Shown: piece by piece, positions 55,967 through 64,000 of the stretch | Position numbering within the stretch: the first letter of the stretch is position 1 | How the letters are laid out: each line of letters opens with the position of its first letter | From: Desulfatiglandales bacterium | GTDB taxonomy: Bacteria; Desulfobacterota; DSM-4660; Desulfatiglandales; Desulfatiglandaceae | Length of the DNA stretch: 64,000 nucleotides | Assembly (NCBI GenBank): GCA_963662465.1 | Contig: OY759599.1 | Span: 7,584,001 to 7,648,000, forward strand | Direction: 5' to 3' | The notes under the pieces: generated by a model | The model's database searches: none | Seen by the model: the letters and a program-made list of their open reading frames with translations, nothing else | What the model was told of the DNA's origin: nothing | Program-made: the position numbers and the translations under genes

Positions 55967-56545
55967 TTAAAACAGCGGCACTGTGGTTGTATTGCTCAAC
56001 CCATAACAGGAATACAGGCCTGCTTGCGGCTGCTCCATTATCCGTCTTTCAATAAACAAACGAAACCGTTGACCGTTTGTTTGGCTGACCATATTAATAT
56101 AAGGCAAACTGCTGAGTTGTTTTTTAAAATCTTTATAATGTACCAGGGCCTGCTGCAATGTTTCCCCTTTACGTTTGGCTCGGCGCCTTGCCAGATTCTC
56201 CTTGTTGCCTTTAGGTTTGATGTGCTTGAAACAAGCGTGCCCCGCTAATTTTTCAGGCACAGGTTTGATGTGGCTTAAATAGAGATAGTCGCTGAGACGT
56301 TTAAGCCATCTTTCACAGCACATTTGCTCCAACAATTTCTCTTCTTCTGCAAACAGTTGCAGTTTTGTACCAAGAGAGTATTTGCCGGCATCGTATTCAG
56401 GAAAAGCCAAACCAATTGCGGATGCGTTATCTGCTCTTTTGTTTTCAACCAAAGCAAGGTGAATCTGTTGATAAAATTTTTGCCAAAGAAAATACAGGCC
56501 TATATCCGCATTGGGTAGCACTGATATTTCTTGATAGTAGTTCAT
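55967..56545 (-). CDS. cas6f: type I-F CRISPR endoribonuclease Cas6f/Csy4
   Basis: IHLALV catalytic His, Arg-rich helix, LPYI.M.S.TNGQ.F.LFI, YGLS...TVPLF. Confidence 0.95.
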   Translation of the reverse strand: MNYYQEISVLPNADIGLYFLWQKFYQQIHLALVENKRADNASAIGLAFPEYDAGKYSLGTKLQLFAEEEKLLEQMCCERWLKRLSDYLYLSHIKPVPEKLAGHACFKHIKPKGNKENLARRRAKRKGETLQQALVHYKDFKKQLSSLPYINMVSQTNGQRFRLFIERRIMEQPQAGLYSCYGLSNTTTVPLF

Positions 56546-56554
56546 CCTCGCTCC

Positions 56555-57604
56555 TTATTTGTCGCTTTTGCCGAATACACCACCACGTACCAGAACAGCC
56601 ATAACGTAGTGTTCATCCTCAACGCGGTCAAGTTTCTCGCCTCGTGCGAATTTATCAAAGAAAGTGTAGAAATCTTTTTTATCTTTTGTAGGATGACGGA
56701 AAGCTTTACCAAGGTTTGTCACTGCGCCATAAGGCTCAACAGCAATAGGGCCTACTGAGTTTTCCGGATCACCAAAGTCGGGATACCAAGTATCGATAGT
56801 GCGCAATGCGTTGCCGATTTTTTGCGAGTGCATTGCGGCAATGTCGTTAACGGAATACAGGATTTTACTTTTTTTGGATTTGCTATTGCCCTTATCCAAT
56901 ACCAATTCCTCGCTGGGATAGATTTCCTGCGCTTTTCCGACTTTGGCGAAACAAGTGATTTCCAGCATCAAAAAATCATTATCACTCGATAGTGCTGCGG
57001 CAATACGCTTCGCCAATGTTTCTATTTGCTCATCATCAATATTAAAATTTTTTGTAGTGAAGTTGGCTGAATCAAATACCCAAAACTTCTCAGATCCTTT
57101 GTTTAAAGCTTCCACCTGCACTTCTATGTTCTCAGTGCCAACTCGATTACGCCATAAAAAACGTGCATTAGCGATGTTTATTGCATATCTTTTTGCTAAC
57201 TCTCTAAATTTTCTTTCACTTATATAGTTTTTTGCTGCTGCGTAGTAACTCTTGTTAAAGGCAGCGTTATTGCAGGCGGATGGATATACAACGCCCCCCA
57301 AAACCTTTAATGTGAAATGTAGCTTCAGTGTATCTTGTTCCGTCCCCAAAGCACTTACATCAACTGTCTGCAAATTAGGATTTTCCACTTTTGCATCGAG
57401 TTTTGCAGGATCTTTTTCAAATGCTGCTTGATCTTTTTTATTCGGTCTGTTTGAGATTGTTCCTCGGACTGACTTTTCAATCAGCTTCAAAGGCGTAGCT
57501 TGCTCGTTTCGCCGATCCCATGTGGTGCCATACATCCGCCCATCTGACGGCACTAATTTCTTTTCAAACGCCAGTACTGATGCGATGTTCTCTTTTTTGG
57601 CCAT
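56555..57604 (-). CDS. cas7f: type I-F Cascade backbone Cas7f/Csy3
   Basis: SVLAFEKKL, KSVRGTISN, NARFLWRN, HSQKIGNALRTIDTWY. Confidence 0.96.
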   Translation of the reverse strand: MAKKENIASVLAFEKKLVPSDGRMYGTTWDRRNEQATPLKLIEKSVRGTISNRPNKKDQAAFEKDPAKLDAKVENPNLQTVDVSALGTEQDTLKLHFTLKVLGGVVYPSACNNAAFNKSYYAAAKNYISERKFRELAKRYAINIANARFLWRNRVGTENIEVQVEALNKGSEKFWVFDSANFTTKNFNIDDEQIETLAKRIAAALSSDNDFLMLEITCFAKVGKAQEIYPSEELVLDKGNSKSKKSKILYSVNDIAAMHSQKIGNALRTIDTWYPDFGDPENSVGPIAVEPYGAVTNLGKAFRHPTKDKKDFYTFFDKFARGEKLDRVEDEHYVMAVLVRGGVFGKSDK

Positions 57605-57883
57605 GACTTTTTTCTCCTAAATCTTGGGCGCTAACCAAAATGGAACCAGTTTTGCTACTCCAAACGGAACCAGATATTGCGCACTGGTCTTTTCCTTTTA
57701 GAAGGGTTTTCTTGTAAATTTGTTAGAGGTTGCATGAAAGAGTATATCAGATGGTATTTTAAAAATGCTGGTGAGACACGTAGCGTTCTGGTTGAAGAAT
57801 CAGTGATGAGGATACCATCAATATGGTGATGGCAGAGAAGAGGGGATTAGATTTTTCGGTTAAGGGCAATGCTTATTGAGGAA

Positions 57884-58093
57884 CTATTTGTCTATGTCAT
57901 AGTCGTCCGGTAAATTCAGGAGGCCTCCCTTCGCCAATTGATCCTCAATCAAATATCCAATTTCCCCGTTTTTTTTCAGCTGTAGAATCATCCATTTGGG
58001 GAGACGAATGGTGAGCAGTTCACGTCTCAAATGTTCCGGTTTCTTTCTTCGGCCGGCGCCTACCCGTTTTCCACCTCTCATTTCAAGCTCCAA
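57884..58093 (-). CDS. small putative DNA-binding protein (RGGxRxGAGR plus RHH-like)
   Basis: RGGKRVGAGRRKK followed by TIRLP strand-helix; start may be the internal Met. Confidence 0.65.
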   Translation of the reverse strand: MELEMRGGKRVGAGRRKKPEHLRRELLTIRLPKWMILQLKKNGEIGYLIEDQLAKGGLLNLPDDYDIDK

Positions 58094-58179
58094 GACAAGG
58101 TAATTTCTGATATTCGTGTAACGAGATTCAAACAGACCGGTGATATTCAGACCTCAAAACCGGCCCTTTGGCGAACATC

Positions 58180-58899
58180 TCATTTTCTGAGGGAAGGACC
58201 ATCAATATGAATGTTGATGCAGCGATGGTTGAGACGATCCAGCAAGGCATCGACCATGTCCTTTGGTTCAAGCAGCGAATACCATTGTTCAGGTTGAAGA
58301 TTGGTCGTAATAATTGTGGACCGACCGGCTTCATAGCGATCTTTCATGAGTTTAAAAAAGGCGTTCATCTGCTCTTTTTTGAGGGTCAGGTATCCCAGTT
58401 CATCGAGCAGAAGCAGGTCATATCTGCAAAGGGCATTGAGGAGTTTCGGGGTGGACCGATCTGCCAAAGACGCATAGAGCTGATCCAGCAAATCCTGAAC
58501 ATTATAAAAACGCCCCCGGTACCCGGCAATAATGGCTTGACGAAGGATCCCCACGGCCAATCCCGTTTTGCCGACGCCGGTTTTTCCATGGAACACGATG
58601 TTTTCTCTTCGGCTGATAAAGTCAAGGCCGGACAACGTCATGATCCGGCTCTTCTGTATTCCCGGCTGAAGATCAAACGGAAAGGAGTTGAGGGTCCATT
58701 CCCATGGAAGCTTTGCAATCTGGACCCGATAGATCATGCTGCGCTCCTGCCGGAAACGTAATTCCTCAGCCAGGAGATTGTAGATGACCTCGTGAATGGA
58801 AAAACCGTTCTTTTCAGCCGAAGCCAACTGTTCTTCGAGAGCCTTCAGCATGCCTTTAAACTTCAAATCAATGAGTAACTGTTCAATTTTCTTTTTCAT
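58180..58899 (-). CDS. istB: IS21 helper ATPase IstB
   Basis: GKTGVGKT, LLLLDELGY, STIITTN and ALLDRL.H motifs. Confidence 0.95.
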   Translation of the reverse strand: MKKKIEQLLIDLKFKGMLKALEEQLASAEKNGFSIHEVIYNLLAEELRFRQERSMIYRVQIAKLPWEWTLNSFPFDLQPGIQKSRIMTLSGLDFISRRENIVFHGKTGVGKTGLAVGILRQAIIAGYRGRFYNVQDLLDQLYASLADRSTPKLLNALCRYDLLLLDELGYLTLKKEQMNAFFKLMKDRYEAGRSTIITTNLQPEQWYSLLEPKDMVDALLDRLNHRCINIHIDGPSLRK

Positions 58900-60278
58900 A
58901 GATCAAAAAAGTCTCCCGCGATATAATCGAGAATAATGTTTTCCAGACGCGACAAATCAAAAAGTCCATATTTAAGCGCCTGTGTTATGGCTTTCAAAAA
59001 AGGTTCCCCGGGATAAGTGCGTTTCAGATGAAGCAACCGACGTAACTTGACCACACCGCGACCGTGACTTCTTTTCTTCAGTTCAGCCACATACTCATCC
59101 AGGATGGCATCCTCTCCCGTCAACAGCTGTTCTTCTTTTGAAGGGATTCGGGGATCTTTTTTTCTTCGAATGGGAACATGGTGACCGGGCAGGGTTGTTC
59201 GGGTGTTGCGTTTATCCAGTATGCGGTCATGTTCCGCCACTTTTGTGTTTTTGTCGTAAACGATGACCTTGAGCCAATGTTTCTGTACTTCCAGGGAGTT
59301 CCCAATCAGCGCTTCAGGGACTGAATAGCGGTTGGTGTCCAAGTGCACATATCCCTGAACATCGGCTACCCTGTGTTCTGCCACATAGACTGGCGGCTGG
59401 TATGCCGGTAAATCAATGAGATATGGCTTTTCAATGACATAGGCCTCATCCGGCGTCATCCCTAAAGCCCGTTTAAACTTTTTATCGCTTGTATTCCGGC
59501 ACCAGTCGATTGCCTGCCGGTTCAAATCCTGCCAGCTAACAAATGTTCTACCGGGAAGAAAATTGTTTTCCACAAAATGAAAAGGCCTTTCCACACGGGC
59601 ACTTCGATTGGCGTCTCCTACAGCATGGGCCTCAAACCGGGTTCCATACATATCGCCGAAGTATTTCATTTCAGGCGCAATCAATGCATCAGGCCCGGTG
59701 CCGCCGGCCACAATAACATTGGTGTTGTCAACCATGCACCGGGAACACACCCCGTCCATAAACTCGAATGCTTTTTTTAGGAAAACCTTGCACTCAAACC
59801 GGGTAAAACAGGGGTAATACTGAATAAAAATCCTTCGGCAAAAGGCCAGGGTCAGGGACGCGCACTGGGTCGACATTTTTTTCCCATTAATGACAACCAG
59901 ATGGGGTGACGTATCATGCTGCATCTCCTGACCGGGTTTAAAATGGTATTGGCCCGCCCGTCTTTTTTTACGTTCCCGGATCTCGTACTTTCTCATAATC
60001 CAGGTCAGACTCTGATAAGGGATTTTGATCTGTTGGCGGCTTTCCAGTTCCTCGGCTACTCGCACGGCATTTCCTTTACATTCCTTGAAAAGCTCGCGGA
60101 TCAACGGGACATGTTCTTCATACCGGGAGTTCCTTTGGGGTACCGCCTCTTCGTCATGATCATCTAAAACCTTCGTGACGGTATTGCGACCGGCCTTCAG
60201 GGTTTTGGCGATGTCGCGCAAACTCATGCCGGTTTTTTTCAATTCCACAATGGCATCTTTTTTGGATTGTCGGATCAT
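58896..60278 (-). CDS. istA: IS21-family DDE transposase IstA
   Basis: N-terminal HTH; PGQEMQHD, VDN, RVER triad; NRYSVP C-terminal domain. Confidence 0.92.
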   Translation of the reverse strand: MIRQSKKDAIVELKKTGMSLRDIAKTLKAGRNTVTKVLDDHDEEAVPQRNSRYEEHVPLIRELFKECKGNAVRVAEELESRQQIKIPYQSLTWIMRKYEIRERKKRRAGQYHFKPGQEMQHDTSPHLVVINGKKMSTQCASLTLAFCRRIFIQYYPCFTRFECKVFLKKAFEFMDGVCSRCMVDNTNVIVAGGTGPDALIAPEMKYFGDMYGTRFEAHAVGDANRSARVERPFHFVENNFLPGRTFVSWQDLNRQAIDWCRNTSDKKFKRALGMTPDEAYVIEKPYLIDLPAYQPPVYVAEHRVADVQGYVHLDTNRYSVPEALIGNSLEVQKHWLKVIVYDKNTKVAEHDRILDKRNTRTTLPGHHVPIRRKKDPRIPSKEEQLLTGEDAILDEYVAELKKRSHGRGVVKLRRLLHLKRTYPGEPFLKAITQALKYGLFDLSRLENIILDYIAGDFFDL

Positions 60279-61159
60279 AATTGGGTCGCTTTCTTGAGTT
60301 CCAGTGCTTGTTTTTCTATCTTTTTCACCCAGGTTTTGAGCGTTTGTTTCTTCAACTGATCGCTTTTTGGGTAATGGACATGCGAAACGGTTTTCACCAG
60401 ACGTTTGAGAACCGCATATGCCATTTCAATATCCTTGAACCATTTGCCTTCCGGTCCATCATGAACTTCTTTGGCTTGTTTAGACTGGGTTCTTTGTTCG
60501 AGAACTTTTATGAAAAGGGATGGATTTTCCAGCATGTGGTCTCGAACAGACCGGTTGCTTTTCTGGTAATGTGCGTAGAAACGGGCCAGTTCCCTTGTGG
60601 ATAGAGGTTCTTTTTCCAGGTGGGCCAACAGTTTTTGTGCGTCTTCACCGTTGGCGCGCGCCAACGGCGCCATGACACGGCTGGCAGCCCAGGTTGAAAG
60701 TGAGCCTGCAATCACGGTTCTCAAAATATTTTCCGGCAGGGCTTCAACCAGGTCCAGCCGCCGTTTTACAAAACTCTTGTCGCGCCCTATTCGGGTTGCA
60801 ATATGGGAGAGGCTGCACCCAAAACGCCGATGTAATTCCTGAAGTAAAACAGACTGCTCAATGACTTCCCATTGCCGTTCATTGGCCTTGGTTAAAAGCG
60901 AAAACATGGCATTTTGTTCGTTTTCTTTTGAGAATTGGACACATATCCGGTCCTTTCCACAAGCACAAAGCGCTCGAACACGCAGGTAGCCATCAATCAG
61001 AATCAGTTTGTCTTTTTCTTCAATAGCCAGGGCCGGAACGATCTGCCCGTAAGTTTCGATGGAATCCCTCAATCGCTTTAAAGCCTGGTGATTCATTATC
61101 CGGCAATGAGCGTAACGCAACTCCAGCAAATGAATATCAACGGTTCGGATGGATTCCAT
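60275..61159 (-). CDS. ParB/Srx N-terminal domain plus HTH protein
   Basis: L..SI..YGQIVP, LIDGYLRVRAL, HTH LSHIATRIGRDKSFVKRRL. Confidence 0.85.
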   Translation of the reverse strand: MESIRTVDIHLLELRYAHCRIMNHQALKRLRDSIETYGQIVPALAIEEKDKLILIDGYLRVRALCACGKDRICVQFSKENEQNAMFSLLTKANERQWEVIEQSVLLQELHRRFGCSLSHIATRIGRDKSFVKRRLDLVEALPENILRTVIAGSLSTWAASRVMAPLARANGEDAQKLLAHLEKEPLSTRELARFYAHYQKSNRSVRDHMLENPSLFIKVLEQRTQSKQAKEVHDGPEGKWFKDIEMAYAVLKRLVKTVSHVHYPKSDQLKKQTLKTWVKKIEKQALELKKATQL

Positions 61160-61556
61160 ACCCAGTCTCCCGAAAGATTTCCTCTATGGTTTCTCCAAGA
61201 CTGACCCAATTTCCTTGCCGGATCTCCTTTACCTGTTTCACAATCACAGGACGTCTGGGAAGCGAAAGAACCTGAAACAGACGGCCATCAAACCCAATCA
61301 GATCCTTGTCCAACAAGCCATCGCGGGCATCGATATATTGATCCAAATGCACCTTTAAAATCCGGCAGATTCTGTCGTAACCATAATAAGAGAGCCCGTT
61401 TTTGTCAGATACCAACACCAGAAAAATGTAGAGCAGCAGCTCATGATGATTCAGGCTCTCCCAAAAGCCGTTTCTCAAAAAACGATGCTCCAGAAAGCCG
61501 AAGCTTCCATTGATGACACGCACTCTTTCGGGAAAAAGGACTCTTTTTTTGATCAT
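61137..61556 (-). CDS. putative winged-helix protein
   Basis: AGGAG RBS; ELLLYIFL...GLSYYGYDRIC..L......ARDGL...DLI pattern. Confidence 0.72.
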   Translation of the reverse strand: MIKKRVLFPERVRVINGSFGFLEHRFLRNGFWESLNHHELLLYIFLVLVSDKNGLSYYGYDRICRILKVHLDQYIDARDGLLDKDLIGFDGRLFQVLSLPRRPVIVKQVKEIRQGNWVSLGETIEEIFRETGYGIHPNR

Positions 61557-61568
61557 TTTTTTCTCCTG

Positions 61569-61985
61569 TCATGGATATGGGGTTTTCTCAAAGCCTGTTA
61601 CATCTGAAAAAACCCTCCCTGCATAAGCACGGCGAGGAAAATGGTCCACAACAACCCCGATCGACCCGCAAAAAAGACAGCTGGGTCGGTTCCCCGACCG
61701 CTTTTTGGGTTCAATATCACAGTCTTTTTGAGGTGTTGAACTATCATCACCAGGGTTCAGTCCATTTTTTTTGGATTTTTTTGTTTTTTCGTACAAACGA
61801 CGGCGCTCTTTCCCTTTTTTCGAATTGCGGTATTTCCCCTGAGCTTTCCGGTGCAGCTGTCTTTGGCGTATCCTGCGACATCGTTCCCCACAATAGGCCT
61901 GGCCACGCCAACACGACCGACAGACGTGAAAAAAGCAACCACAACATCGGCATTGAACCACTCTTAAAAGGACATCTCCCATCAT
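61569..61985 (-). CDS. Cys-rich putative zinc-finger protein
   Basis: CRCC..F.VCRSC.RGQAYC...CR, basic helix, C-terminal CLFC; start uncertain (61985-62012). Confidence 0.72.
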   Translation of the reverse strand: MMGDVLLRVVQCRCCGCFFHVCRSCWRGQAYCGERCRRIRQRQLHRKAQGKYRNSKKGKERRRLYEKTKKSKKNGLNPGDDSSTPQKDCDIEPKKRSGNRPSCLFCGSIGVVVDHFPRRAYAGRVFSDVTGFEKTPYP

Positions 61986-62061
61986 TCCAGCCTTGCAATT
62001 GGCCGGAAACACACTTATATAAAATTGGCGTGTGTGTGGCTTCCGGCTCTATCCGGTGGTC

Positions 62062-62097
62062 AAAAAAGAAGGCCCGAAGCGGCTACTTCGGGCCTTC
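62062..62097 (-). terminator. intrinsic terminator inside the upstream end of the IS21-like element
   Basis: perfect 12-bp stem GAAGGCCCGAAG/CTTCGGGCCTTC followed by T6 on the minus strand. Confidence 0.75.
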
Positions 62098-62360
62098 ACC
62101 ATCCATTCTACAAAGTAAATCGCATTTCCACTTAACCAAGCCTCTGTCTTGGAAGAAGAAAACCAAATCCAAAGAAAATAGATTTTATAAAAATTTATTG
62201 AAAAGTAAATCTACATCAACGACTCCTTTGCCGCCACTTATGGATCCCTCATCGTCCGCTATACCTGAGGGCCGTACTCACCGGCGGTGACAGCCAATGG
62301 TTCAATTTCCATTAGCAAACTTGGTTCAGTTTTGATTAGCGTTGAAGCCTAAATTTATTA

Positions 62361-63302
62361 TTATTGGTTTAAGTCGCTTTGACTGGTTTGTTGACACAGG
62401 TATAGACCCTGTTCCATATCAGCATGATAGCGCCAAAAGATTTCATCCAGGGTATGGAGTCTGTGCGGCATACGGAATTCACCCAGCGTTACCACACTTT
62501 CGGCAAAACGATGCTGCGTATCCGGATCACGCTGGTTTTTTGCCGACCCTAATTCGGTGATGCCATGAAAGCCCGTGGCGATTGGAACGATCCATCCCGA
62601 TGTTTTTCGTTGGCTTGCCCAAGTAACATTGCCGTCATCGTCTTGTTCACAAGTGTGATGAAGCGCCAGATAATCCAGCATGGTATCAATGGGGTCCTGG
62701 CCTTGCGCCATGGCCTCTATCATCAATTCACGGCGTTCGATTATTGCATAACCCGGCATTAATTGCCGAGTCAGCCTGTGCAGTTCGGCGTCGTTACCTT
62801 CTTCTATTCTGTGCAGTGTCGGTTTTTGAAAAGATAAAATATCGCCACCGGCTATTTTCATGGATACATTTAGATGATGGGTAACCTGCCCTATTAATGC
62901 CTCTTCATCGTCTTTGTTTATGCGGGAGTATTCAATAAGTAGAGAAACATTCAAATGGCATCGGGCTTCCTCGATAAATGATGGCGCTGAGCCGGCATTA
63001 AAATCGGTAAGCTCTTTCTTAGTTGAAGGTGGACGCTTTGGAACAATTATGGACTGAACAAAATCGCCATCTACAAATTTTGTTTGAAGGTCCATACCAT
63101 GGCTAACAACCGCCACACTGCTAAAAATCAGGTTTTGCAATCCTTCTGATCCTGCGGCGTTCACTTTACGCTGCAACGCATGCATTGCGCCCAACCAGGC
63201 CGTCATAGCTGGAAAACCAACCGTAAACGGGCTGGATAAGGCATTGGCATTCTGCACCTTGATATGCGGCAAAAGTAAAACTCGCCTGATATCTCCGATC
63301 AT
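62361..63302 (-). CDS. cas5f: type I-F Cas5f/Csy2
   Basis: VQNANALSSP.TVGFPA.TAWLG..HALQR, GW.VP...G and H.FAES motifs. Confidence 0.95.
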   Translation of the reverse strand: MIGDIRRVLLLPHIKVQNANALSSPFTVGFPAMTAWLGAMHALQRKVNAAGSEGLQNLIFSSVAVVSHGMDLQTKFVDGDFVQSIIVPKRPPSTKKELTDFNAGSAPSFIEEARCHLNVSLLIEYSRINKDDEEALIGQVTHHLNVSMKIAGGDILSFQKPTLHRIEEGNDAELHRLTRQLMPGYAIIERRELMIEAMAQGQDPIDTMLDYLALHHTCEQDDDGNVTWASQRKTSGWIVPIATGFHGITELGSAKNQRDPDTQHRFAESVVTLGEFRMPHRLHTLDEIFWRYHADMEQGLYLCQQTSQSDLNQ

Positions 63303-64000
63303 CGTAACGCCTCCCTGTTATTAGTCACAATTTTATAAATATGCAGGCGAACATCTTCACCCAATTTATATGCCTGTTTGCCCAACAACTTTTCATAGGT
63401 GAGGACGATCCAACCGCTAATTTTCCTACACAGTTTGTTGAGCCATTCATTTTCTTCTTGACGTGATTGTTGAAATCCTTCGCAGAGCCATGTTTCCTGA
63501 TGAGGTTTTAACTGTGAGCTCTTCGCTTGATATTGTTCGGTACAAACAGCCCGCACCGCCCACATTTTGTTAATAATTCGGTCCATTAAATCCTGTAAAC
63601 GATAATCACGCCCTTCTCTTATGTGTACATTGTTGTATTCTGTTTTGAACAACCTATGCAGCGCATCAAAGACCTCTCGATATTCGTGATATCGAAATGA
63701 TTCCCTGAAGAAATTCTGTTTGGGAAAACGGATTCCGCGCTTTTGTAAAGTTGGTGGGGCAGAATATAATAAATAATACCATTGATATGTATTGTTTAAT
63801 CCACTGATATTTTTTGGGTGTTCCCCACCATGACGGGTGACGGTCAAATTTGGTATGGTTGAAAATCCAGTTTGGGAATATTTATTATCTTTCCTTAATT
63901 TCTTTCCTGTATAAGCTTCCGGAGATCTTTCGTTAATAGTGTCTATTTTCTCTTTTACGGAAAAGACCAACGCCGATGGCGTCAGTAATGACAACGAATG
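63299..64000 (-). CDS. cas8f: type I-F Cas8f/Csy1 (5' partial)
   Basis: GGEHPKNIS.LN....YLL.S.PP motif; ATGA overlap with csy2. Confidence 0.9.
   Translation of the reverse strand, partial: HSLSLLTPSALVFSVKEKIDTINERSPEAYTGKKLRKDNKYSQTGFSTIPNLTVTRHGGEHPKNISGLNNTYQWYYLLYSAPPTLQKRGIRFPKQNFFRESFRYHEYREVFDALHRLFKTEYNNVHIREGRDYRLQDLMDRIINKMWAVRAVCTEQYQAKSSQLKPHQETWLCEGFQQSRQEENEWLNKLCRKISGWIVLTYEKLLGKQAYKLGEDVRLHIYKIVTNNREALR

Follow-up and report, generated by a model that had tools for sequence, protein, structure and literature searches.

Gene content and layout of the element

The window analyzed here, a stretch of 64,000 nucleotides from the genome of a Desulfatiglandales bacterium (contig OY759599.1, positions 7,584,001 to 7,648,000), contains an IS21-family element of 4,725 bp at window positions 57623-62347. 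The element has six co-oriented genes on the minus strand. Two of them encode the transposase IstA and the helper ATPase IstB, and a third encodes a ParB-like protein whose coding sequence contains a perfect palindrome. The element, its open reading frames (ORFs) and the palindrome are located as follows:

57623..62347, minus strand: whole element; the operon reads from 62347 to 57623, and 21 full-length copies share these ends
61569..62012, minus strand: Cys-rich basic protein, Zn2 type, with CxxC motifs at both ends; likely start ATG at 61985
61137..61556, minus strand: winged helix-turn-helix (wHTH) protein, HTH_36-like; optional module
60275..61159, minus strand: ParB-like protein with a ParB/Srx-type N-domain, a helix-turn-helix (HTH) domain and a C-terminal helical domain
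58896..60278, minus strand: IstA DDE transposase
58180..58899, minus strand: IstB AAA+ helper ATPase
57884..58093, minus strand: 69-aa basic ORF; optional module
60650..60665, no strand: perfect 16-bp palindrome GTTGGCGCGCGCCAAC; the dyad extends to 60648-60667 (20 bp); candidate parS-like site

This layout had been described in a sequence-only reading of the window. The six co-oriented ORFs, and the inverted repeats and 7-bp target-site duplication (CCTAAAT) that it placed around them, were all confirmed. The ATGA overlaps it gave for parB-like/istA (60275-60278) and istA/istB (58896-58899) follow from the ORF coordinates, as does the 23-nt overlap of the wHTH gene with parB (61137-61159). 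It was also right that the element has no parA; none is present among the six ORFs, and IstB is the sole ATPase.

IstA matched NF033546 with an E value of 1.9e-37 over model positions 3-294 of 294, at 129.4 bits compared to a curated cut-off of 160, and matched Mu-transpos_C_2 at 60.9 bits. Its catalytic residues D122, D184 and E230 were invariant in a 16-sequence alignment of the clade. IstB scored 225 bits with NF038214 (cut-off 200) and 200.6 bits with Pfam IstB_IS21.

The ParB-like protein and the palindrome within its gene

The family profile of the ParB-like protein matched solved ParB and Noc chains bound to cytidine triphosphate (CTP) or cytidine diphosphate over the N-domain and the HTH (best E 1.2e-14). 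Its AlphaFold model (pLDDT 77) had ParB, Noc and KorB as top fold matches in Foldseek, KorB being represented by 8qa9_A (E 2.8e-7); sulfiredoxin was also matched. The HTH domain reached 29.1 bits with PF17762 (HTH_ParB) compared to a cut-off of 22.6, and G57, R60 and A63 of the GxxRxxA box were invariant in 20 sequences. Pfam ParBc was listed for some relatives of the protein. The C-terminal third, with its invariant GPEGKW motif, is specific to this family. The search for relatives gave 984 at E <= 0.001, most of them on contigs no longer than 5 kb, and those with titles came from several phyla, mostly from sediment and anaerobe genomes.

The DNA dyad symmetry inside the ParB-like gene is under selection. 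GTTGGCGCGCGCCAAC encodes the invariant residues P-L-A-R-A-N and is the sole perfect palindrome with arms of at least 7 in the element; no further half-sites were found within the element. Conservation of the palindrome was surveyed in 118 ParB ORFs, 98 of them distinct, from which 67 were kept at <90% identity. A perfect 16-mer occurred at the same codons in 36 of the 67 genes, arms of at least 7 in 44 and at least seven of eight pairs in 60. Only two other perfect 16-mers were found in the 58,485 positions of the surveyed genes. When 16-nt windows of the gene were ranked by conservation, the top eight all fell on the palindrome, and the entropy of its central codons was 0.00 bits (Ala) and 0.11 bits (Arg) as compared to 1.7-2.5 bits at conserved Ala and Arg columns elsewhere.

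Where the arms vary, the symmetry is kept, as in TATGG..CCATA (P-M-A-R-A-I), TATTG..CAATA (P-I-A-R-A-I), CATTG..CAATG and ATTGG..CCAAT. When both arms change in this way, a synonymous change on one side can be matched by a residue-altering one on the other, and three of the eight pairs change on both sides. Counting G-T as a pair, and bearing in mind that related sequences inflate such counts, 94.3% of the cells in the gap-free alignment were paired compared to 81.0 +/- 1.2% in shuffled data (a level reached in 0 of 500 shuffles) and 21-48% with slid partners, and 54 cells were changed on both sides compared to 19.3 +/- 3.2 in shuffles. The recognition helix of the HTH domain reads DKSWVKRRLDL in the GTTG classes of palindrome and (N/K)QSWVS(R/G)RLAL in the xAT classes. 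Distant ParB genes (20-22% identical), which belong to an IS21 type carrying ParB together with a CHC2 zinc finger, carry a palindrome of another sequence, also perfect but of 14 bp (TTCATACGTATGAA or TTTATACGTATAAA), and the codons that it covers, F-I-R-M/I-N, are the aligned ones.

The 16-mer has 26 exact copies in the genome, of which 25 lie in copies of the element and one stands alone; base composition predicts about 0.002. The lone copy, at G000:C1:3732981-3732996, is intergenic, in AT-rich DNA, and belongs to no copy of the element. Two of about 20 distinct wHTH gene sequences (L096 and L197) also have a palindrome, at the same codons; it was rejected as an accident of the shared QKEIL motif.

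Linkage, co-descent and selection of the accessory genes

In loci of at least 3 kb found with ParB as the query, IstA was directly downstream in 42 of 44, followed by IstB where the DNA allowed, and this linkage reached down to 26-40% ParB identity. One of the two exceptions was cut by a contig end, and the other (L079) was a ParB fragment without IstA. Metagenome loci found with IstA as the query (53-88% IstA identity) had the ParB-like gene directly upstream in 76 of 80 instances. The remaining four had <100 bp of upstream DNA, and the informative loci are thus 76 of 76. In a phylum sample of 401 genomes, the three other genomes with an IstA of at least 50% identity all had an adjoining ParB. 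Two of three IstA matches at 31-32% in one further genome (G206) had ParB, the third being a decayed copy with a stop codon. One IstA match lay at a contig edge, and the match L095 (36%) as well as all matches at 27% or below were without ParB.

The ParB-linked IstAs (18/18) formed one clade with SH-aLRT support of 99 in a quick tree, in which L095 and L110 were on long branches, and the ParB tree recovered the groups of the IstA tree. Pairwise distances of ParB and IstA correlated with a Pearson coefficient of 0.93 (0.88 without L110) and a Spearman coefficient of 0.64 (0.47 without L110). The ratio dN/dS, calculated against three relatives, was lowest for IstB (0.05-0.07), followed by IstA (0.09-0.16), and came to 0.16-0.34 in the Cys-rich, wHTH and ParB genes; all accessory genes tested are under purifying selection. 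In all 61 loci where the DNA upstream of ParB extended for 500 bp or more, a Cys-rich gene preceded ParB.

The sequence-only reading had proposed that the accessory genes are core machinery rather than cargo, and had named as contrary findings a lack of these genes next to close IstA homologs and incongruent IstA and ParB trees. For ParB neither was seen, given the linkage and the congruent trees: close IstA homologs carry it, and the two phylogenies agree. The proposal therefore stands for the ParB-like and Cys-rich genes, which are linked in 76/76 and 61/61 loci and share their descent with IstA, and it fails for the wHTH gene and the 69-aa ORF, which are optional. The core of the clade is four genes (Cys-rich, ParB-like, IstA and IstB) as compared to two in canonical IS21.

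Modular operon head and optional genes

The Cys-rich proteins at the 61 loci fall into four sequence types: 29 Zn2, the type in the window, 26 ZnK, 5 Zn3 and 1 other. Homology was supported between ZnK and Zn3 (95%), weak between ZnK and Zn2 (26%, E 7e-4) and not supported between Zn2 and Zn3; the 216-aa and 229-aa Cys-rich proteins showed no similarity. The wHTH gene was present in 7 of the 61 loci, scattered over the IstA tree. ZnK and wHTH genes together also head ParB-less IS21 elements (L096, L097, L100, L103 and L112) with IstAs that are about 25% identical to that of the window. The 69-aa ORF is absent from the related element of NaphS2, and its homologs were found downstream of istB in some relatives and in two other IS21-type families of this genome. 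This patchy distribution of the wHTH gene and the 69-aa ORF marks these two as add-ons to the core of Cys-rich, ParB, IstA and IstB genes.

Two elements of the same genome (G000:C1:3489000-3494600 and G000:C1:284000-289000) have a different layout, in which a Cys-rich ORF (about 210 aa) comes first, then a wHTH gene and then three tyrosine-recombinase genes. The wHTH protein of this recombinase-in-trio layout is 50% identical to that of the window, and mobile elements of unrelated kinds therefore share the wHTH module. At G000:C1:6813000-6823000, two more expanded types of IS21 lie side by side. One, with two copies in the genome, has a Cys-rich ORF, a ParB-like gene, IstA, IstB, a CHC2 zinc-finger protein and a small ORF. 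In the other, with three copies, a 901-aa IstA that has a Toprim domain at its C-terminus is followed by two small ORFs and then IstB.

The small proteins gave few database matches. The wHTH protein of the window scored 23.3 bits with Pfam HTH_36 (cut-off 25), a cut-off that its relatives exceed. Its predicted model is a generic winged helix for which a comparison with the PDB returned nothing at E <= 0.001; weak matches to plasmid Rep initiators (5kbj, E 0.037) ranked beside generic winged-helix regulators. The Cys-rich protein and the 69-aa ORF matched no family in Pfam, NCBIfam, PHROGs or PADLOC, a Protein Atlas search returned unnamed clusters only, and none of the accessory proteins matched a PADLOC defence family at E <= 0.01. 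By eye the 69-aa ORF looks ribbon-helix-helix-like, a label that no family match backs.

Two features were identified in the leader, upstream of the first gene:

62182..62209, minus strand: promoter-like block TTTACT-16-TAAAAT, a consensus match kept in five related elements
62058..62097, minus strand: terminator-like hairpin with a 12-13-bp GC stem and a T-run

In the five related elements, the stem of the hairpin is invariant and the loop variable. The hairpin lies about 110 nt downstream of the promoter-like block, is absent from more distant relatives and matched no Rfam family. It could insulate against read-through or serve as an attenuator.

Ends, copies and mobility of the element

The borders of the element consist of the following features:

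57616..57622, no strand: left target-site duplication CCTAAAT, which overlaps AGG of the csy3 ribosome-binding region
62348..62354, no strand: right target-site duplication CCTAAAT
62297..62347, minus strand: terminal inverted repeat at the operon 5' end, with sub-repeats 62298-62316 and 62322-62340 and the outer end 5'-CTT
57623..57673, plus strand: terminal inverted repeat at the operon 3' end, with sub-repeats 57630-57649 and 57654-57673

Each end contains two direct sub-repeats of about 20 nt at a spacing of 24 bp. The inverted repeats are imperfect, with 37 of the 50 outermost columns identical, and a repeat search with a 9-nt seed missed them because none of their exact runs is as long as the seed. 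The repeat at the operon 5' end is kept in related elements. In the non-coding ends, the only repeats found were the terminal sub-repeats and one 10-nt repeat that occurs twice.

The 8.16-Mb genome contains 21 full-length copies with 99.5-100% identity and the same boundaries, and broken copies besides. The 26 copies in all cover an estimated 1.5% of the genome, and each of the 21 full ones is a chromosomal insertion whose ends are fixed. Nineteen are 4,725 bp long, and the other two (G000:C1:360993-365736 and 174103-178846) are 19 bases longer, at 4,744 bp. Direct repeats flank 17 of the 21, with lengths of 7 bp (eight copies), 8 bp (seven), 6 bp (one) and 5 bp (one). For the four copies without a flanking duplication, pairwise comparison of the flanks gave no match. 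In the contigs of one sequencing run, probably from the source sample, the depth of the element was about 25-35 times that of its flanks. Copy number, fixed boundaries, duplications and depth together demonstrate that the whole 4.7-kb unit transposes. The element is mobile and active.

Three interrupted copies (G000:C1:1533098-1539753, 5974616-5981271 and 6833271-6839802) have inserts of about 1.8-1.9 kb. The element coordinates overlap by 9-10 bp at these inserts, which are other insertion sequences that landed inside. In the NaphS2 genome, a related element copy of 4,464 bp is followed by two tandem extra copies of its last 522 bp (L022:4874-6441), a unit made up of the istB end and the terminal repeat.

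No circle or tandem junctions of the element were found in the contigs of four public runs; contigs cannot reveal rare forms, and this result is uninformative on circles. Contigs from two RNA libraries span most of a variant that is about 98% identical, and these are not evidence of expression because DNA carry-over is possible. A plasmid collection held no match to the element DNA or to the ParB-like protein, and the sole match with IstA as the query was an element of the HRM2 plasmid at 28% identity.

Insertion into a type I-F cas operon

In the window, the element sits inside a type I-F cas operon, in the 13-bp spacer that separates csy2 from csy3, and is co-oriented with the operon. The genes of the operon (window region 55967-64000) are Csy4/Cas6f (55967-56545) and Csy3 (56555-57604) on one side of the element and Csy2 (62361-63302) and Csy1 (63299-64000+) on the other. 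Csy3 and cas6f are thereby separated from csy1 and csy2 by 4.7 kb that include the terminator-like hairpin, and such a co-oriented insertion is therefore probably polar on csy3 and cas6f.

Only one of the 26 copies is inside a cas operon. There was no target consensus around 17 insertions, no orientation bias with respect to replication (15 co-oriented compared to 11) and no avoidance of genes, as 14 of 17 insertions fell in long frames compared to 84% of random sites. The insertion pattern gives no support for targeting. At another copy, a Zn3-type Cys-rich ORF (G000:C1:393219-393593, E 4e-23) with an adjoining CHC2-like frame lies 500 bp from the element and is probably a remnant of another IS21-type element that this element struck.

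Discussion

The reading that we prefer, as somewhat more likely than not, takes the palindrome for a parS-like site at which the ParB-like protein of the element binds and from which it would control the element in cis. Linkage, co-descent, purifying selection, the match to ParB folds and the conserved palindrome speak for it, with KorB as a precedent. The protein would read the palindrome as a dimer, binding the 16-bp site in its own gene with one site per element, and would then act in cis on the element DNA. We rate KorB-like negative control of the transposase operon as the most likely mechanism. The ParB-like protein may block transcription at the internal site, or it may travel the roughly 1.5 kb to the promoter in the leader, where a small DNA-binding partner would hold it. 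That the protein binds the palindrome, uses CTP and brings about repression is what we infer.

KorB of plasmid RK2 is a CTPase clamp of the ParB family: it is loaded at palindromic operators, travels as far as 1.5 kb and silences promoters jointly with KorA, a small protein that locks the clamp there (PMC11790492). Like KorB-KorA, the element combines a ParB-family N-domain with an HTH and a candidate palindromic site, would need no ParA for regulation, encodes small presumed DNA-binding partners nearby and would, as proposed here, act over a range of about 1.5 kb. Nor is a missing parA exceptional among regulators of the ParB family, as KorB in its repressor role illustrates (PMC11790492). 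In the window, up to three such small proteins are encoded alongside (the Cys-rich protein, the wHTH protein and the 69-aa ORF), and the palindrome lies about 1.5 kb downstream of the promoter-like block. The KorB example, the distance between site and promoter and the small partner genes together lead us to favor negative control in cis; its main rival is that the protein takes part in transposition directly. The element also differs from KorB-KorA in that it is a transposon and not a plasmid, that it has a single site, located within the gene of the ParB-like protein itself, and that its GERR box is degenerate. Nor are its candidate partners, a zinc-ribbon and a winged-helix protein, related to KorA.

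Several observations weigh against control in cis through a ParB site. With regard to the palindrome, 10 of the 67 genes (class GTTGT) have a fixed central mismatch, and 7 of the 67 keep six or fewer of the eight pairs. The third-position conservation of the six palindrome codons ranks third among 308 windows when Met and Trp columns are included. Because the sequences are related, the compensatory changes amount to a handful of events and not to 54 independent ones, and the link between recognition helix and palindrome class, although suggestive, is confounded by descent. With regard to the protein, the box reads DGYLRVRA where the canonical form is GERRxRA; the Glu that is mutated in the solved entry 7o0n is Tyr here, the first Arg is Leu, and both are replaced family-wide. 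CTP hydrolysis, and even CTP binding, may therefore be lost. The window protein did not reach Pfam ParBc at E <= 0.1 and scored 44 bits with TIGR00180 (cut-off 58). The promoter-like block from which the distance of 1.5 kb is counted is a consensus match only. Finally, a ParB N-domain would be superfluous in a plain repressor, and its presence makes room for a direct role of the protein in transposition.

Such a role would make the ParB-like protein part of the transposition reaction, as the sequence-only reading had suggested with a clamp that regulates target choice or immunity. The protein would load at the palindrome and spread over the element, and would either mark it as "self" and so keep IstB away from neighboring DNA (target immunity) or pair the ends for IstA. 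We regard this as possible but doubtful. The linkage, the co-descent and the evidence for a site in cis support it equally well, and since parB overlaps istA by ATGA, ParB and IstA would be made together. The whole N-domain has been kept with its GxxRxxA motif, which suits a spreading clamp better than a plain repressor, and IstB-type ATPases pick targets under transposase control (PMC11208146). However, canonical IS21 transposes with IstA and IstB alone (PMC10122671), and the insertions described above showed no preference in sequence, orientation or gene content. With about 1.5% of the genome, the 26 copies cover too little of it for self-avoidance to show. A bolder form of the idea, which we offer as a tentative and rather improbable one, is that a nucleotide-switch clamp of the ParB type would be a fixed third subunit of a DDE/AAA+ system and would mark "self" for IstA-IstB through cis-immunity, end-pairing or copy-number sensing over the 25 sites. 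The Cys-rich and winged-helix proteins would then be exchangeable clamp-locking partners common to other mobile elements, such as the recombinase trio. The predicted complex of IstA, IstB and the ParB-like protein (score 0.29, mark 0.32) speaks neither for nor against binding.

It is unlikely that the palindrome serves something other than the ParB-like protein, whether as an mRNA hairpin or as a site for the Cys-rich protein, IstA or a host factor. Covariation alone would fit RNA pairing as well as DNA dyad symmetry, but here the symmetry passes through the center with no loop, and the innermost synonymous pair differs among lineages, G:C (GCG/CGC) in some and A:T (ATA/CGT) in others, a change that a hairpin loop does not require. 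Although the Cys-rich protein is as universal as ParB, the ParB-less IS21 elements with the same Cys-rich and wHTH genes show no comparable conserved palindrome, and it is the recognition helix of the HTH that shifts together with the outer bases of the site. We give very little credence to maintenance or replication of an excised circle, with ParB as partition protein and the wHTH protein as a Rep-like initiator. A ParB-like protein and a centromere-like palindrome are indeed present, the wHTH model weakly matches Rep initiators, and primase-like modules (CHC2 or Toprim) occur in related IS21 types of this genome. Those Rep matches, however, are above E 0.001 and rank beside generic regulators, the element has no parA, 54 of the 61 relatives have no wHTH gene and 21 of 21 full copies are chromosomal with fixed ends. 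It is just as improbable that the extra genes are passenger cargo, for instance anti-defence genes or genes of benefit to the host, with no role in the life cycle of the element. The location of the window copy inside a CRISPR-cas operon and the free exchange of the Cys-rich slot and the wHTH gene among elements would fit cargo; a single cas operon insertion among 26 copies, the lack of PADLOC matches, the linkage to IstA in all informative loci, the congruent trees, the translational coupling and the purifying selection would not.

Classic IS21 elements are about 2-3 kb long, whereas the present element measures 4.7 kb and has six genes (four in the clade core) instead of two. Its IstA falls below the NCBIfam cut-off (129 compared to 160 bits) and is about 25% identical to ordinary IS21 IstAs of the same phylum. 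PMC10122671 describes IS21 members as a pair of ORFs flanked by repeats, each made up of two sub-repeats at a spacing of 23 bp, gives 5-bp duplications for IS5376 and mentions a reactive terminal CA. Compared to that description of IS21 and IS5376, the element has the same istA-istB order, overlapping genes, ends of two direct sub-repeats (24 as compared to 23 bp) and short target duplications without strong target specificity. It differs from the description in that its duplications are mostly 7-8 bp, unlike the 5 bp of IS5376, and its ends are 5'-CTT...AAG-3' in all copies and in the relatives, whereas canonical IS21 has the reactive end 5'-CA-3'.

The element shares with ParABS systems the domain order of ParB, the GxxRxxA motif and a 16-bp palindrome, here a candidate site, and some chromosomal parS sites lie inside parB/spo0J. 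It differs from ParABS in the lack of ParA, in the family-specific C-terminal domain with GPEGKW and in the replacement of residues that are mutated in solved hydrolysis mutants. Unlike in ParABS, a multicopy transposon has placed 25 dispersed candidate sites on the host chromosome. A further comparison is phage Mu, whose early region has repressor c and Ner upstream of MuA and MuB. In the element as in Mu, genes for DNA-binding regulators precede a DDE transposase and a target-choosing AAA+ ATPase, and IstA has been likened to MuA (PMC10122671). The regulator proteins, in contrast, are unrelated to those of Mu, and an enhancer or operator is here only putative.

A literature search, which did not cover ISfinder, found no account of IS21, IstA or IstB with an element-borne ParB-like gene or such a passenger. 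A related element on a Desulforapulum autotrophicum plasmid (NC_012109.1 9243-17595) has no transposase called in its public annotation, where its genes are listed separately as "chromosome partitioning protein ParB", "helix-turn-helix domain-containing protein", "ATP-binding protein" and "CHC2 zinc finger". With such gene names, elements are missed as transposons and their ParB genes are open to confusion with partition loci.

What is new here is the palindrome inside the ParB-like gene. It gives a large IS21 clade, which always carries a ParB-like and a zinc-ribbon-like protein, a well-defined candidate DNA site. The placement of the site within a gene is a layout in which selection at the DNA level overrides the choice of codons and even of amino acids. 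IS21 is a structural model for the control of a DDE transposase by an AAA+ ATPase, and the clade points to an unstudied way of controlling transposition. It offers a testable case of a switch of the ParB/CTP type outside partition and inside a transposon.

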